Shown here: positions 1 to 56,310 of the stretch, piece by piece | How the letters are laid out: every line of letters begins with the position of its first letter | Position numbering within the stretch: position 1 is the first letter of the stretch | Assembly: GCF_030013595.1 (NCBI RefSeq) | Contig: NZ_CP122768.1 | Reading direction: 5' to 3' (one strand) | Length of the DNA stretch: 64,000 nucleotides | Source of the DNA: Escherichia coli | GTDB lineage: Bacteria > Pseudomonadota > Gammaproteobacteria > Enterobacterales > Enterobacteriaceae | Translations under genes and position numbers: made by a program | Notes under the pieces: generated by a model | The model's database searches: none | Seen by the model: only the letters and a program-made list of their open reading frames with translations | Told to the model about the DNA's origin: nothing

Positions 1-104
1 TTATTCAGGGGATGTCGATCAGCGCACGCGAAGGTGCATCGCTGGAAAAACTGATGCAGATTGCCCGAACGACTTTGCGTTTATGGCCCGAACTGGTGAA
101 ATAA
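1..104 (+). CDS. comR: 3' end of a CDS running off the window start; context fits the TetR-family repressor ComR (YcfQ)
   Basis: One frame is open from nt 3 to TAA at 102-104 (...RLWPELVK*); followed by a hairpin terminator and convergent with ycfJ. Identity inferred from synteny only. Confidence 0.4.
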   Translation, partial: IQGMSISAREGASLEKLMQIARTTLRLWPELVK

Positions 105-111
105 GTCGCAA

Positions 112-150
112 AAAAAGCCCCTCAGCCTGAGCGAATGAGGGGCTAAATTG
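112..150. terminator. Bidirectional intrinsic terminator between comR and ycfJ
   Basis: A-run, then inverted repeat agcccctca...tgaggggct, between two convergent CDS. Confidence 0.5.
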
Positions 151-165
151 CAGAGTACAGCCTTG

Positions 166-705
166 TTATACTTTGTTATTCAAAATCAGTTGCCCGTTGC
201 TATCTAGCGGGATCTGCGTACCCGGATCGCGGTCCATGCGGATTTTGCCCTGCTGATCGCCAATCTTATAGGTCACATCATAACCGAGCATTTTTTCTGA
301 CTTGTCATACACCGTTTTACAACGCTGTTGCGTAGTCGTGTAAGTATCGCTTTCCTGGAGAGAGCCCTGGATCTGGTTACCGGCATAGCCACCTCCCAGC
401 GCCCCCACAACAGTGGCGACATCTTTACCGCGACCACCGCCAAACTGATGCCCTATCACGCCGCCAGCAACAGCGCCGAGCACCGACCCGGTAATGCGAT
501 TTTCATCCTGCACCGGTCGACGATGGGTCACTGTGACGTTGCGACACTCCTGACGCGGTGTTTTAACCGTTTCCTTGATTGGGGTTGCAGAAACAACCTG
601 AGCGTATTGCGGGCCACGTTCAAACACGTTCAGACTGGCCACTGCCGCTACGCCCAACGCAGCTGCGACACCAATCCCGATACCCGCCAACATTGATTTA
701 TTCAC
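166..705 (-). CDS. ycfJ: YcfJ, glycine-zipper (Rick 17 kDa antigen-like) membrane protein
   Basis: ORF 166..744 (-); Gly/Ala-rich N-terminus; start trimmed to GTG (VNKSML...) preceded by GGAGGTG RBS, giving 179 aa. Confidence 0.85.
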   Translation of the reverse strand: MNKSMLAGIGIGVAAALGVAAVASLNVFERGPQYAQVVSATPIKETVKTPRQECRNVTVTHRRPVQDENRITGSVLGAVAGGVIGHQFGGGRGKDVATVVGALGGGYAGNQIQGSLQESDTYTTTQQRCKTVYDKSEKMLGYDVTYKIGDQQGKIRMDRDPGTQIPLDSNGQLILNNKV

Positions 706-824
706 GGGAACACCTCCTTCTTTGCTGTTATGCCAATCATGCAAGCGAAGGAGAAAAGCAGCTATCAGACAGAAGATGAAAAGCGCGGGAATGGCTGGAA
801 ATACTTAGGGATTCGGAGGAGTCT

Positions 825-925
825 GAAGGAATGCCTGATGCGACGCTTAACGCGTCTTATCAGGCCTACCGCTCGTACCATTTGTCCAGGGCGGATGAAG
901 CGTTTATGCCCCATCCGCCAGTACA
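825..925. repeat. REP/BIME palindromic repeats (ycfJ-ndh intergenic)
   Basis: gcctgatgcgacgcttaacgcgtcttatcaggcctac and a second gcggatg...catccgc palindrome; classic REP signature. Confidence 0.7.
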
Positions 926-931
926 AGCCGA

Positions 932-2236
932 TTAATGCAACTTCAAACGTGGACGGATAACGCGGTTAATACTCCCCACCAGCATCATTAATCCGGTTTT
1001 AAAGTAACCATGCAGCGCAATCTGATGCATTCTGTACAGCGAGATGTATACAAAGCGCGCAATTCGTCCTTCAATCATCATTGAGCCGCGCGTCAGGTTA
1101 CCCATCAGGCTACCGACGGTGGAGAAGTTCGACAGCGATACCAGAGAACCGTGATCTTTATACTGATAATTTTTCAGCGGCTTACCATTCATCTGCGCCA
1201 GAATGTTGTTCATTGCGCAGGTTGCCATCTGGTGTGCGGCCTGCGCACGCGGCGGAACAAAGCCCCCTTCCGGACGCGGGCATGACGCGCAATCGCCAAT
1301 AGCGTAAATGTCTGGATCGCGAGTGGTTTGCAGCGTCGGTTCCACCACCAGCTGGTTGATACGGTTGGTTTCAAGACCACCGATATCTTTCAGGAAGTCT
1401 GGCGCTTTGATCCCGGCTGCCCACACCATCAGATCAGCCTCAATATATTCGCCATCTTTAGTATGCAGGCCGCCTTCATCAGCACTGGTGACCATGGTTT
1501 GCGTCAGCACGCGAACGCCAAGTTTCGTTAACTCATTATGGGCCGCAGCAGAGATACGTGGCGGTAATGCAGGCAAAATACGTTCGCCCGCTTCTACCAG
1601 CGTTACGTTCAGGGCTTCGTTGGTCAGACCTTTATAGCCGTAGCTGTGCAGTTGCTTGACCGCGTTGTGCAATTCAGCGGAGAGTTCTACACCCGTCGCG
1701 CCGCCACCGACAATCGCAATGTTCACTTTGCCATTCGCGCCCAGGTTGGCGGAGTATTTCAGGAACAGATTCAGCATCTCCTGGTGGAAGCGACGCGCCT
1801 GGTGCGGGTTATCGAGGAAAATGCAGTTCTCTTTGACACCTGGTGTATTGAAATCGTTAGAGGTGCTACCCAGCGCCATTACCAGGGTGTCATAGGCGAT
1901 TTTACGTTCCGGAACCAGCAATTCACCTTTTTCGTCGCGCAGTTCTGCAATAGTGATTGTTTTCGCTTCACGATCAATATCAATGACGGAACCCAGCTGG
2001 AACTGGAAACCATGATTACGCGCATGGGCCAGATAGCTCAACGCATCAACGCCTTCATCAAGCGAGCCAGTCGCCACTTCGTGCAGCAGCGGTTTCCACA
2101 GGTGGCTGTGGTTACGATCGACCAGCGTGATTTTGGCTTTTTTCTTGCGTCCCAGCTTATGCCCCAGCTGTGTTGCCATTTCCAGCCCACCAGCACCGCC
2201 GCCGACAATCACAATTTTTTTCAATGGCGTAGTCAA
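932..2236 (-). CDS. ndh: NADH:quinone oxidoreductase II (NDH-2)
   Basis: ORF 932..2263 (-); FAD/NAD Rossmann motif [10 protein letters not shown]; start trimmed to in-frame TTG (MTTPLKK...) giving 434 aa. Confidence 0.9.
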
Positions 2237-2420
2237 CGTGACCCCCTTAAATTTATTAACCAATTGTTAATTAATGGTTGTTAACATAGCTCTTAATTAA
2301 CAACAGGTTACAGCAATGAAAATGTTCTTCGCTATTGAGAATAACATGAATGGTGCATTGGTCATACCAAAATTGATGTTAATCAAGTTTTGTTGCTGAA
2401 AAGATAGGCGACTTTACCGG
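2237..2420 (-). promoter_or_regulatory. ndh promoter / upstream regulatory region
   Basis: AT-rich region with several TTAAT-type half-palindromes directly upstream of ndh; specific operator sites not resolved by eye. Confidence 0.3.
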
Positions 2421-2504
2421 GCGAGATCAAAAAACAGAGTTTGTTGTTTATTATTTGAGCTAATTTATGAGAGTGGTATAGCGTGAGGGGTGTATGGAGG
2501 ACGT

Positions 2505-2632
<128 letters not shown>

Positions 2633-2635
2633 CAT

Positions 2636-3178
2636 TTACCCGAGGGTTTTGAACGCTTTAATGCGCTGCAAATGCGGGGAGATATTCTTGAATTTGTGCG
2701 TCTGCTCTTCGTCCCAGACAATCTCGTAATAATGATGCAGCTCTTCAGATGTCCGCTGGCTGTTAAGCGCTTCATCATTACGCGACAAAATCACCAGGCA
2801 ACGATCGCGATTCTTCTCACGGAAGTTGGTCACACACTTAGTGGCAATATCGGCATACTCTTCCGGGCGATCAATCTTGCCTTCCATGTTCTCATAAGGG
2901 AACAAATTAGGGTTGAAGATCACCTGGCGGATATCGCAAAGAAAACCAATCCGTTCCGCCCAGTATCCGCCCAGACCAACGCCGCAAATCAGCGGACGCT
3001 CGTCGACGTTCAGTTGCAACATTTTGTCCACTTCTTTGAGCAGATGCTGCATATCATGTTTCGGATGCCGCGTACTGTAGCTTATCAAGCGTACATCCGG
3101 GTCAATAAACTGCAATTGTAAGACTTTCTCGTGGTTACCCGGACTGTTAGAGTCAAAACCGTGTAAATAGATAATCAT
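2636..3178 (-). CDS. ycfP: YcfP, alpha/beta-hydrolase (esterase-like) protein
   Basis: ORF 2636..3235 (-); start trimmed to [10 protein letters not shown]... (180 aa) with GAGGAAG RBS. Confidence 0.9.
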
Positions 3179-33609: not shown

Positions 33610-33727
33610 TTAGTGACAAGCAGAGCAGAAGCACGCGACGGTGCGAATTTCCCCTCACCCTAACCTCTCCCAAAATGGGCGAGAGAATAGTCCGCGCGCT
33701 TTTATTGCAATGTCATCAATCGTTTAA

Positions 33728-38875: not shown

Positions 38876-38900
38876 CTCCGGCCTGCACTGCAGGCCGGAA
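38876..38900. terminator. Bidirectional terminator between convergent flgN and murJ
   Basis: ccggcctgcactgcaggccgg perfect inverted repeat. Confidence 0.6.
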
Positions 38901-38907
38901 TGCATTG

Positions 38908-40530
<1,623 letters not shown>

Positions 40531-50390: not shown

Positions 50391-50420
50391 ATGTTGCCGG
50401 ATGACACGCATCCGGCAATG
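50391..50420. repeat. REP element between convergent yceI and yceA
   Basis: gccggatgacacgcatccggc palindrome. Confidence 0.65.
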
Positions 50421-52622: not shown

Positions 52623-52793
52623 ATCTCCCATGCCGGATGCTTCAGAAGGGTATCCGGCATTACCACAGCAAATCCCCCTGATTTAGCGATAAAAGCTCTC
52701 TGGATTGCGCCCCCTGGAAGTCGGGCGCATAATTAGTGTGCTTATCTTTTCTTCTTATGTTCACCGCGCCTGGCGCACCAACAGCGGATTGCT

Positions 52794-54731: not shown

Positions 54732-54744
54732 CGGCATAACGCCG
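54732..54744. repeat. Left copy of the 13-bp IS4 target-site duplication
   Basis: cggcataacgccg immediately left of the IS4 left inverted repeat; identical copy at 56171..56183. Confidence 0.8.
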
Positions 54745-56170
54745 TAATGCCGATCAGTTAAGGATCAGTTGACCGATCCAGTGGCTGTGTAAGAATCCGG
54801 AAACGCTCACTTGTTTCCGGATTTTTTTATGCACATTGGACAGGCTCTTGATCTGGTATCCCGTTACGATTCTCTGCGTAACCCACTGACTTCTCTGGGG
54901 GATTACCTCGATCCCGAACTCATCTCTCGTTGCCTTGCCGAATCAGGTACTGTAACGCTACGCAAGCGCCGTCTTCCCCTCGAAATGATGGTCTGGTGTA
55001 TTGTTGGCATGGCGCTTGAGCGTAAAGAACCTCTTCACCAGATTGTGAATCGCCTGGACATCATGCTGCCGGGCAATCGCCCCTTCGTTGCTCCCAGTGC
55101 CGTTATTCAGGCCCGCCAGCGCCTGGGAAGTGAGGCTGTCCGCCGCGTGTTCACGAAAACAGCGCAGCTCTGGCATAACGCCACGCCGCATCCGCACTGG
55201 TGCGGCCTGACCCTGCTGGCCATCGATGGTGTGTTCTGGCGCACACCGGATACACCAGAGAACGATGCAGCCTTCCCCCGCCAGACACATGCCGGGAACC
55301 CGGCGCTCTACCCGCAGGTCAAAATGGTCTGCCAGATGGAACTGACCAGCCATCTGCTGACGGCTGCAGCCTTCGGCACGATGAAGAACAGCGAAAATGA
55401 GCTTGCTGAGCAACTTATAGAACAAACCGGCGATAACACTCTGACGTTAATGGATAAAGGTTATTACTCACTGGGACTGTTAAATGCCTGGAGCCTGGCG
55501 GGAGAACACCGCCACTGGATGATACCTCTCAGAAAGGGAGCGCAATATGAAGAGATCAGAAAACTGGGTAAAGGCGATCATCTGGTGAAGCTGAAAACCA
55601 GCCCGCAGGCACGAAAAAAGTGGCCGGGACTGGGAAATGAAGTGACAGCCCGCCTGCTGACCGTGACGCGCAAAGGAAAAGTCTGCCATCTGCTGACGTC
55701 GATGACGGACGCCATGCGCTTCCCCGGAGGAGAAATGGCGGATCTGTACAGTCATCGCTGGGAAATCGAACTGGGATACAGGGAGATAAAACAGACGATG
55801 CAACTGAGCAGGCTGACGCTGAGAAGTAAAAAACCGGAGCTTGTGGAGCAAGAGCTGTGGGGTGTCTTACTGGCTTATAATCTGGTGAGATATCAGATGA
55901 TTAAAATGGCGGAACATCTGAAAGGTTACTGGCCGAATCAACTGAGTTTCTCAGAATCATGCGGAATGGTGATGAGAATGCTGATGACATTGCAGGGCGC
56001 TTCACCGGGACGTATACCGGAGCTGATGCGCGATCTTGCAAGTATGGGACAACTTGTGAAATTACCGACAAGAAGGGAAAGGGCCTTCCCGAGAGTGGTA
56101 AAGGAGAGGCCCTGGAAATACCCCACAGCCCCGAAAAAGAGCCAGTAAGTTGCTTAACTGACTGGCATTA
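54745..56170 (+). mobile_element. Insertion sequence IS4 (complete, 1,426 bp)
   Basis: Terminal inverted repeats TAATGCCGATCAGTTAAG (54745-54762) and CTTAACTGACTGGCATTA (56153-56170; 16/18 match); single DDE transposase ORF; flanked by 13-bp direct repeats; the length equals canonical IS4. Confidence 0.9.
54829..56148 (+). CDS. insG: IS4 transposase (InsG-like, IS4-family DDE transposase)
   Basis: ORF 54811..56148 (+); ATG at 54829 ([20 protein letters not shown]...); IS4-family C-terminal Y..R..E signature (...[17 protein letters not shown]...). Confidence 0.9.
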
Positions 56171-56183
56171 CGGCATAACGCCG
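56171..56183. repeat. Right copy of the 13-bp IS4 target-site duplication
   Basis: cggcataacgccg immediately right of the IS4 right inverted repeat. Confidence 0.8.
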
Positions 56184-56204: not shown

Positions 56205-56310
56205 TTTTGCCAGATGTGGCGTGAACGCCTTATCCGACCTACAAAATCTTGCAAAATCAACACATTGCAGGAGCGATGTAGGCCTGATAAGCGTAGTGCA
56301 TCAGGCAACT
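56205..56310. repeat. BIME (REP cluster) downstream of opgH
   Basis: gatgtggcgtgaacgccttatccgacctac and gtaggcctgataagcgtagtgcatcaggc REP units. Confidence 0.7.

Follow-up and report, generated by a model that had tools for sequence, protein, structure and literature searches.

The palindromic repeats in the 64-kb stretch of Escherichia coli DNA analysed in the present study (hereafter, the window) are best explained, with high confidence, as members of the ordinary E. coli REP family, occurring as single units or as BIMEs at six intergenic loci and probably working through a 3'-UTR hairpin mechanism. These REP/BIME elements are already known, routine features. The original prediction had placed REP palindromes in five ranges and after lpxL, and all six loci were present, with essentially the predicted coordinates.

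The window is collinear, in reverse orientation and at 98.4% identity, with about 1,105,724-1,168,303 of K-12 MG1655, and this collinearity is interrupted only by a 1.43-kb insertion and one replaced spacer. By megablast, the first 4 kb of the window showed 100% identity to two pig E. coli isolates. The gene context was taken from the K-12 annotation and the list of open reading frames of the window. The copy of the RefSeq K-12 record used contains no REP repeat_region features; therefore, REP names and coordinates follow the EcoCyc naming, as given in Supplementary Tables 15 and 16 of Harris et al. (2026).

REP units detected in the window

A covariance model, R1, was built from nine K-12 units aligned GTAG-first, with a bulged-hairpin structure. 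The training units came from REP325 (a 12-unit array between yjdM and yjdN) and from the BIMEs flanking rayT, all of which are outside the window. Over the 64 kb, the matches of R1 fall exactly at the six named loci and nowhere else. A search across the window with REP consensus models had been set in advance as a check on the prediction, and by R1 the prediction had included every REP locus of the window and no false one. Six canonical palindromic units scored 33-55 bits (E <= 7e-7), and four weak REP-like hairpins, degenerate or symmetrised relatives of such units, scored 15-21 bits (E 0.002-0.065). The features are listed below.

831-869, minus strand: Z2-type (long) REP unit GTAGGCCTGATAAGACGCGTTAAGCGTCGCATCAGGCAT (R1 53.4 bits, E 1.5e-12)
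886-921, plus strand: diverged Y-type unit, REP103 ortholog (R1 18.0 bits, E 0.011)
2508-2536, plus strand: Z1-type (short) REP unit GTAGGCCTGATAAGAAGCGCATCAGGCAT (R1 36.0 bits, E 1.1e-7)
2547-2582, minus strand: Y-type REP unit with a GTAA tail (R1 54.9 bits, E 6e-13)
2590-2630, minus strand: unique palindrome CGCATCAGGTAACC..GGTACCTGATGCG, not REP (no R1 match)
22317-22347, plus strand: weak REP-like hairpin GCCGGATGCG-TTTACGT-CGCATCCGGC (R1 20.9 bits, E 0.002)
22358-22393, minus strand: hybrid unit with a Y-type centre, Z-type stem and GTTG tail (R1 47.8 bits, E 6e-11)
50393-50418, plus strand: short perfect hairpin TTGCCGGATG-ACACG-CATCCGGCAA, REP99 ortholog (R1 17.8 bits, E 0.013)
52630-52663, minus strand: REP-like hairpin, REP98 ortholog (R1 15.3 bits, E 0.065)
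56207-56242, minus strand: Y-type unit of a BIME-1, downstream of opgH (R1 43.9 bits, E 7e-10)
56243-56277, no strand: L linker of the BIME-1 (conservation against three K-12 BIME-1 loci; ES036 match)
56278-56308, plus strand: Z1-type unit of the BIME-1 (R1 33.1 bits, E 7e-7)

When R1 was run over the 64 kb with the speed filters off, no further site was observed at E < 0.6 except opposite-strand images of the palindromes. The hairpin between the convergent genes murJ and flgN (38890-38923, E 0.63) was not accepted as REP; it is a listed bidirectional terminator without a REP label. The same model detected 36 strong copies in 150 kb of unrelated K-12 sequence and also recovered the orthologous copies in the K-12 version of the region, and megablast of the ndh-ycfJ site gave up to 7 places per genome. 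The palindromes had been described as normal for E. coli, consistent with the recovery of exactly these loci by a model made from unrelated K-12 REPs. REP density in the window is entirely average, with 10 units at 6 loci versus a K-12 mean of 9.6 units and 4.9 loci per 64 kb. The latter values were derived from 697 units and 355 loci in K-12; literature figures for K-12 are 584-697 REP units per genome.

The tail-plus-stem motif GTAGGCCKGATAAG, allowing up to two mismatches, was observed 8 times versus 0.47 expected; none of 100 shuffles reached 8, and six of the eight matches are the canonical units. All six loci are intergenic in a region with an intergenic share of 9.3% (P about 6e-7), and every locus is more stable than its shuffled versions (z -3.7 to -7.2), with 0 of 200 shuffles as stable. 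Simpler pattern searches were less useful. A loose regular-expression scan (CCKGATR...YATCMGG) returned 65 mostly spurious matches and was dropped for the covariance model, and a fixed-spacing consensus search returned the Z2 unit, two chance matches in coding regions and nothing more, missing units because lengths differ between unit types. Rfam has no generic REP family, and two of its "sRNA" families, ES036 and naRNA4, are REP-derived; naRNA4 is a curated model for a REP pair (Z2 and Y) in head-to-head arrangement.

The comparison with annotated K-12 REPs also agreed with the prediction, as five of the loci are orthologs of REP98, REP99, REP101, REP102 and REP103. Harris et al. (2026) place these at lpxL-mdtG (REP98, K-12 1115627-1115653), yceI/trhO (REP99, inside the K-12 overlap region 1117862-1117893), yceF/rluC (REP101, K-12 1145929-1146003), ycfP-ndh (REP102, K-12 1165740-1165814) and ndh-ycfJ (REP103, K-12 1167403-1167432, 30 nt), and place REP100 at flgF-flgG (K-12 1134587-1134684). 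The orthologs of REP98, REP99, REP101, REP102 and REP103 in the window are, in this order, the lpxL hairpin, 50393-50418, the yceF/rluC pair, the units 2508-2536 and 2547-2582, and the diverged Y unit 886-921. REP96 and REP97 were not found in the supplement of Harris et al. (2026), and the EcoCyc number of the opgH-yceK element is probably REP97. The sites at ycfP-ndh, yceF/rluC, yceI/trhO and opgH-yceK are 95-100% identical to K-12.

Structure and pairing of the units

The units of the window share with the Y, Z1 and Z2 units of E. coli the consensus, the GTAG tail, the bulged hairpin, the extragenic 3' position and the loci themselves. For type naming, we took Z2 to be the long form and Z1 the short form because REP325 is an alternating Z2/Y array (Harris et al. 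2026) and the partner at the rayT flank is z2 (Ton-Hoang 2012), both of which are long. The exact GTAG tail was observed at 869, 2508, 56242 and 56278, and one-base variants at 2582 (GTAA) and 22393 (GTTG); GTAA is offset by one base at 52663, and the tail is absent at 886 (CCAG), 22317 and 50393. An AA/GC-type internal stem mismatch is present in all six canonical units, and 886-921 has A-C mismatches, whereas the stems of 22317-22347 and 50393-50418 are perfect and have no mismatch. In several units, compensatory changes are found in the stem, or the tail deviates by one base (GTAA, GTTG). The motif originally proposed for these palindromes, GCCGGATG...CATCCGGC, holds for the Y type and the weak hairpins, but not for the three Z units and the Y/Z hybrid 22358-22393, which carry GCCTGATG...ATCAGGC, the Z arms being CCTGATG and not CCGGATG.

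According to Ton-Hoang 2012 (PMC3333891), both the mismatch in the stem and the GTAG tail are required for recognition by RayT. The hairpins 22317-22347, 50393-50418 and 52630-52663 are without the exact tail, the mismatch or both. By this biochemical definition, three of the four weak hairpins fail as REPs, although they are EcoCyc-annotated in K-12, and with scores of 15-21 bits their family membership follows mainly from the EcoCyc annotation and the arms.

At ndh-ycfJ, the Z2 unit 831-869 lies 62 nt downstream of the ndh stop codon and, as read directly, has the exact GTAG tail and the AA/GC stem mismatch. The diverged Y unit 886-921 is arranged tail-to-tail with it across a 16-nt linker. 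This unit has kept the Y centre AGCGTTTATGCC, has CCAG where GTAG is expected, and shows a compensatory change in the stem (GCC to GGC on one side, GGC to GCC on the other); its K-12 ortholog scored 26 bits with R1 (E 7e-5). The RNA hairpin of 886-921 has a folding energy of -22.4 kcal/mol (z -5.3). Alignment with K-12 showed that the Z2 at this locus is decayed there, with loss of the right arm and tail, and that what is left is limited to about 10 nt at its start and part of the centre. For K-12, only REP103 is listed at ndh-ycfJ, whereas the Z2 of the window is intact.

In the ycfP-ndh spacer, the Z1 unit 2508-2536, which is identical in K-12 and part of the REP102 ortholog, and the Y unit 2547-2582, which has a compensatory GTC/GAC stem variant, are arranged head-to-head with a 10-nt linker. 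This pair (2508-2582) is an atypical single BIME and scored 56.6 bits with naRNA4 (2511-2579; gathering score 59.5). The prediction had extended the REP range to 2505-2632; the REP units at 2508-2582 stood, whereas the last third (2590-2632) was found to be a single-copy palindrome outside the family. The palindrome 2590-2630 was rejected as REP because R1 gives no match and it is single-copy. It is present in 5425 of 5426 E. coli genomes and folds at -22.8 kcal/mol (z -6.0). Its arms are Z-type REP heads in reverse arrangement, as at a head-to-head BIME junction, and this resemblance suggests that it may derive from a BIME that lost its outer halves and then became fixed.

Between the convergent genes yceF and rluC, the hybrid unit 22358-22393 is paired head-to-head, again with a 10-nt linker, with the hairpin 22317-22347, a perfect stem without GTAG tail that is part of the REP101 ortholog. 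With naRNA4, this pair scored 58.1 bits (22318-22390; gathering score 59.5). The ycfP-ndh and yceF/rluC pairs resemble BIME-2 (naRNA4, Rfam RF02564; Z2-S-Y tandem arrays) in the head-to-head arrangement and the 10-nt linkers. However, neither reaches the gathering score of 59.5, each is a single pair and not an array, and the partner of the unit with the Y centre is Z1 at ycfP-ndh and a symmetric hairpin at yceF/rluC, not Z2. Canonical K-12 BIME-2 loci scored 67-111 bits with naRNA4. At the gathering threshold, naRNA4 had no match in the window, and no multi-copy BIME-2 or tandem array was observed there.

The convergent genes yceI and trhO are separated by a 41-bp gap that is taken up by the hairpin 50393-50418, which has neither GTAG tail nor stem mismatch and folds at -18.3 and -15.9 kcal/mol on the two strands. 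The lpxL-mdtG hairpin 52630-52663 (-19.8 kcal/mol, z -3.7) has Y-type stem arms, a GTAA tail offset by one base and a centre unrelated to the consensus.

The opgH-yceK element is, in its sequence, a textbook BIME-1 composed of a Y unit, an L linker with an IHF consensus and a Z1 unit, and it agrees with the published definition, which includes the single copy (Ton-Hoang 2012, PMC3333891). Y and Z1 are arranged tail-to-tail with a 35-nt linker. The L linker is conserved in K-12 at opgH-yceK, flgF-flgG (REP100) and melB-yjdF, and contains the IHF consensus AATCAACACATTG at 56255-56267, matching WATCAANNNNTTR. Rfam ES036 matched 56243-56285 with 45.7 bits (gathering score 37.6) and also matched the K-12 linker. 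Compared with known BIME-1 (RIB/RIP) elements, the one described here has no structural difference and shares the IHF motif in the linker; it differs in the IS4 found 36 bp away.

This IS4 is complete (54745-56170, 1426 bp) and ends 36 bp beyond the Y unit. It encodes the Pfam domains Nterm_IS4 and DDE_Tnp_1, and a 13-bp target duplication, cggcataacgccg, lies on either side of it; the palindrome that it targeted has an A-tract/hairpin/T-tract structure and resembles the opgGH terminator. The junction beside the BIME-1 is rare (13 of 5426 genomes). IS1397 and IS621 target REPs. Both were considered for the 1.4-kb insertion and rejected, as the Pfam domains are those of IS4 and the target is the neighbouring terminator-like hairpin and not a REP.

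Position at gene ends, function and rival explanations

All ten units are located between annotated genes and none between divergent genes. The description of the palindromes as lying 3' of genes or between convergent genes was accurate: two loci are convergent (yceF/rluC and yceI/trhO), and four are 3' of ndh, ycfP, lpxL and opgH, each of which forms a tandem pair with its neighbour. At all six loci, 6-12 nt separate the stop codon of the upstream gene from the start of the first hairpin: 12 nt after ndh for the stem of 886-921, 10 nt after ycfP for the palindrome 2590-2630, 8 nt after yceF for 22317-22347, 7 nt after lpxL for 52630-52663, and 9 nt after opgH, on the mRNA, for the Z1 hairpin 56278-56308. 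On the rluC side of yceF/rluC, the distance is 31 nt. One idea is that a spacing of this kind stalls ribosomes.

By analogy with published work on the family and with K-12 data at the orthologous loci, we infer the following mechanism. The units would be transcribed within the 3' UTR of the upstream gene, where the stable hairpins most likely block 3'-to-5' exonucleases and act as partial terminators. In this way, they would define the 3' ends and modulate how the neighbouring genes are expressed, with effects depending on context. At the DNA level, the linker of the BIME-1 would additionally offer a predicted site for IHF. Units that have both a bulge and a GTAG-type tail would be potential substrates of the HUH nuclease RayT/TnpA(REP), whose action is a plausible cause of the spread of the family and of the differences between strains at these loci.

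Several observations in K-12 concern the orthologs of the elements described herein. Harris et al. (2026) list REP99 and REP101 at overlapping 3' ends of convergent transcripts, and both are on the published list of bidirectional terminators, REP99 at K-12 1117862-1117893 and the ortholog of 22358-22393 with 3' ends overlapping at 1145926-1145969. An in vitro Rho-binding site overlaps REP102 by 74 nt in the sense direction, within a transcript region that is sensitive to bicyclomycin, and further Rho-binding sites are found at distances of 13 nt (REP98), 47 nt (REP101) and 3-12 nt (REP103) (Harris et al. 2026). In the same study, REP325 attenuated read-through, in part Rho-dependently, and protected the upstream mRNA; REPs in tandem pairs biased expression to the upstream gene, and REPs between convergent genes accompanied higher expression of both. 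The effects of REPs were context-dependent, and over the whole genome terminal REPs gave no increase in mRNA half-life (Harris et al. 2026). The prediction had also assigned the palindromes two likely functions, namely mRNA 3'-end stabilisation and binding of gyrase and IHF. The 3'-end role has experimental backing in K-12, whereas the IHF motif occurs at one locus only and the window has no BIME-2 gyrase target.

The extent to which the elements act on DNA is related to this last point. It is improbable that they serve mainly as sites for chromosome-organising proteins (gyrase, IHF, Pol I and HU). The introduction of Ton-Hoang 2012 (PMC3333891) cites the binding of IHF, Pol I and gyrase to BIMEs, and the BIME-1 has a conserved L linker with the IHF consensus. 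However, that linker is found at one of six loci only, and matches to the bare IHF consensus show no enrichment (5 in the window versus 2.75 expected); among the window's elements, likely only the BIME-1 would bind IHF, as judged from its linker. The published gyrase target is, by the title of the work cited, BIME-2. The window has no multi-copy BIME-2, and for the gyrase association of BIME-2 it has no clear substrate. Moreover, Harris et al. (2026) observed neither a role of REPs in chromosome compaction nor long-range REP-REP contacts. A second reading concerns the hairpins 22317-22347, 50393-50418 and 52630-52663, which might be locus-specific terminators or stabilisers that share only the GCCGGATG/CATCCGGC arm with REPs and were not mobilised by RayT. 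We consider this possible, but the less likely account of these three. The absence of both GTAG tail and mismatch from 22317-22347 and 50393-50418, and the offset GTAA and unrelated centre of 52630-52663, are in its favour, given that RayT binding needs tail and mismatch; so are the R1 scores of only 15-21 bits, and the position of 50393-50418, like that of its K-12 ortholog, precisely at the overlap between the 3' ends of convergent transcripts. On the other hand, the orthologs are REP98, REP99 and part of REP101 in EcoCyc, the arms have the same sequence as the Y-type head TGCCGGATGCG, and 22317-22347 pairs head-to-head with a canonical unit, the pair reaching 58.1 bits on naRNA4. In addition, four R1 matches with E 0.002-0.07 were observed in 3' intergenic spots versus roughly 0.1 by chance.

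The position at gene 3' ends, where terminators also lie, might suggest that the palindromes belong to no repeat family and are either GC-rich inverted repeats that arose by chance or intrinsic terminators of the ordinary kind. This is next to impossible. E values reach down to 6e-13 on a model trained on other loci, and these R1 scores, together with the 8 occurrences of GTAGGCCKGATAAG versus 0.47 expected, refute it. No T-run or U-tract follows any of the ten hairpins, and a terminator scan of 1-3000 gave one weak match, fewer than in shuffled sequence, with only one weak alternative pairing for the REP stems. Membership of the ordinary E. coli REP family, combined with a probable role of the hairpins in the 3' UTR, is the explanation that we prefer.

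Differences between strains and their implications

The window and K-12 differ in their REP content at fixed loci. At flgF-flgG, an unrelated sequence (33620-33712) replaces K-12 REP100, in which an L-like linker joins a Y unit to a degenerate partner. The core of the replacement is CCCCTCACCC-TAA-CCTCTCCC-AAAAT-GGGCGAGAG. The same three-block layout has been described for BoxC/PIT intrastrand-triplex repeats (PMC4666352), and the flgF-flgG repeat in the window is, by its sequence, BoxC/PIT-like. With an identity of about 80%, the core recurs within a genome at six places (median), and the BoxC/PIT-like allele at flgF-flgG is present in 1942 of 5426 genomes (36%). At ndh-ycfJ, the Z2 allele resembling that of the window is present in 3784 of 5426 complete E. 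coli genomes; 70% of genomes have an intact unit, and in the others it is decayed.

Because of the exchange of REP100 and BoxC, the intact or decayed state of the Z2 and the hairpin resembling a BIME core after ycfP, the intergenic spacers of the region could be regarded as turnover hot spots, at which small dispersed repeat families replace one another. We put this forward as speculation and think it rather unlikely. The inverted REP pairs of the window recall the REPIN/RAYT system, in which doublets are mobilised by a single-copy HUH tyrosine transposase. The 64-kb window has no rayT gene; rayT (K-12 b0228) is present in 3575 of 5426 E. coli genomes. Mobility of the copies in the window is suggested solely by the differences between strains.

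For annotation, the segments are best described as REP/BIME, namely the orthologs of REP98, REP99, REP101, REP102 and REP103 and the BIME-1 at opgH-yceK, and not as candidates for new RNAs or regulatory sites. In the same way, the Rfam "sRNA" family ES036 corresponds here to the linker of the BIME-1 at opgH-yceK and not to a free-standing gene. If RayT cleavage or recombination did produce the states observed in different strains, the region would represent a natural series for the gain, loss and domestication of REPs. REP content varies between strains at fixed loci, and this variation could shift, from one lineage to another, the 3'-UTR behaviour of ndh, the flg operon and opgGH.

A repeat linker and an IS4 insertion between opgH and yceK

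Features of this spacer, in window coordinates:
56243-56285 (13439-13481 in the matching K-12 sequence): match to Rfam ES036, above gathering score
54745-56170: complete IS4, 1426 bp
54732-54744 and 56171-56183: 13-bp target duplication flanking IS4

In the opgH-yceK BIME-1 (Y unit, L linker with IHF consensus, Z1), the L linker together with the neighbouring tails is matched by the Rfam family ES036, listed as the CssrF "sRNA". Thus, at this locus, the "sRNA" family coincides with the linker of a repeat element. At the gathering threshold, ES036 did not match the BIME-1-like linkers of REP100 and melB-yjdF in K-12.

Unlike the window, K-12 carries no IS4 at opgH-yceK, and this junction is common to only 13 of the 5426 complete E. 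coli genomes. The copy is bounded by terminal inverted repeats (TAATGCCGATCAGTTAAG.../...CTTAACTGACTGGCATTA) and encodes, in a single ORF, a transposase (445 aa as listed, counted from an upstream TTG) with Nterm_IS4 and DDE_Tnp_1 domains. The target is a terminator-like palindrome of A-tract, hairpin and T-tract between the opgH BIME-1 and yceK; its hairpin core is now present in two copies, of which the opgH-side one lacks the T-run and the yceK-side one retains it.

REP units and palindromes at gene ends

2590-2630: strong unique palindrome, starting 10 nt downstream of the stop codon of ycfP
38890-38923: GC-rich hairpin between convergent flgN and murJ; REP covariance model 11.7 bits, E 0.63 (marginal)
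23593-23929: rne 5' UTR element, Rfam, above gathering score
21564-21732: SraB sRNA, Rfam, above gathering score
45624-45673: pyrC leader, Rfam, above gathering score

The Z2 REP unit 3' of ndh (831-869) is intact in the source strain and in approximately 70% of E. coli genomes. In its K-12 counterpart (1167452-1167490), by contrast, only TGCCTGATAC..AACGCG is left, and the EcoCyc element REP103 spans just the 30-nt unit adjoining this decayed Z2. The palindrome 3' of ycfP is single-copy, is kept in 5425/5426 genomes, and is enclosed in K-12 by a mapped Rho-binding region. Its arms are the same as the heads of Z-type REPs, but turned inside out; from this sequence likeness, we suggest that it may be what is left, now fixed, of the head-to-head junction of a BIME. 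The K-12 ortholog of the flgN/murJ hairpin is entered in a list of bidirectional terminators, with no REP label. The three Rfam matches are ordinary features, expected for the region.

Alternative repeats in the flgF-flgG spacer

REP100, the BIME-1-like element of K-12, is missing from the flgF-flgG spacer of the window (33620-33712), where it is replaced by a BoxC/PIT-like repeat of three blocks, CCCCTCACCC / CCTCTCCC / GGGCGAGAG. This allele was observed in 1942 of 5426 genomes, and its core recurs, with approximately 80% identity, at 6 sites in the median genome. In other words, the flgF-flgG spacer hosts a member of one or the other of two dispersed-repeat families, depending on the strain.
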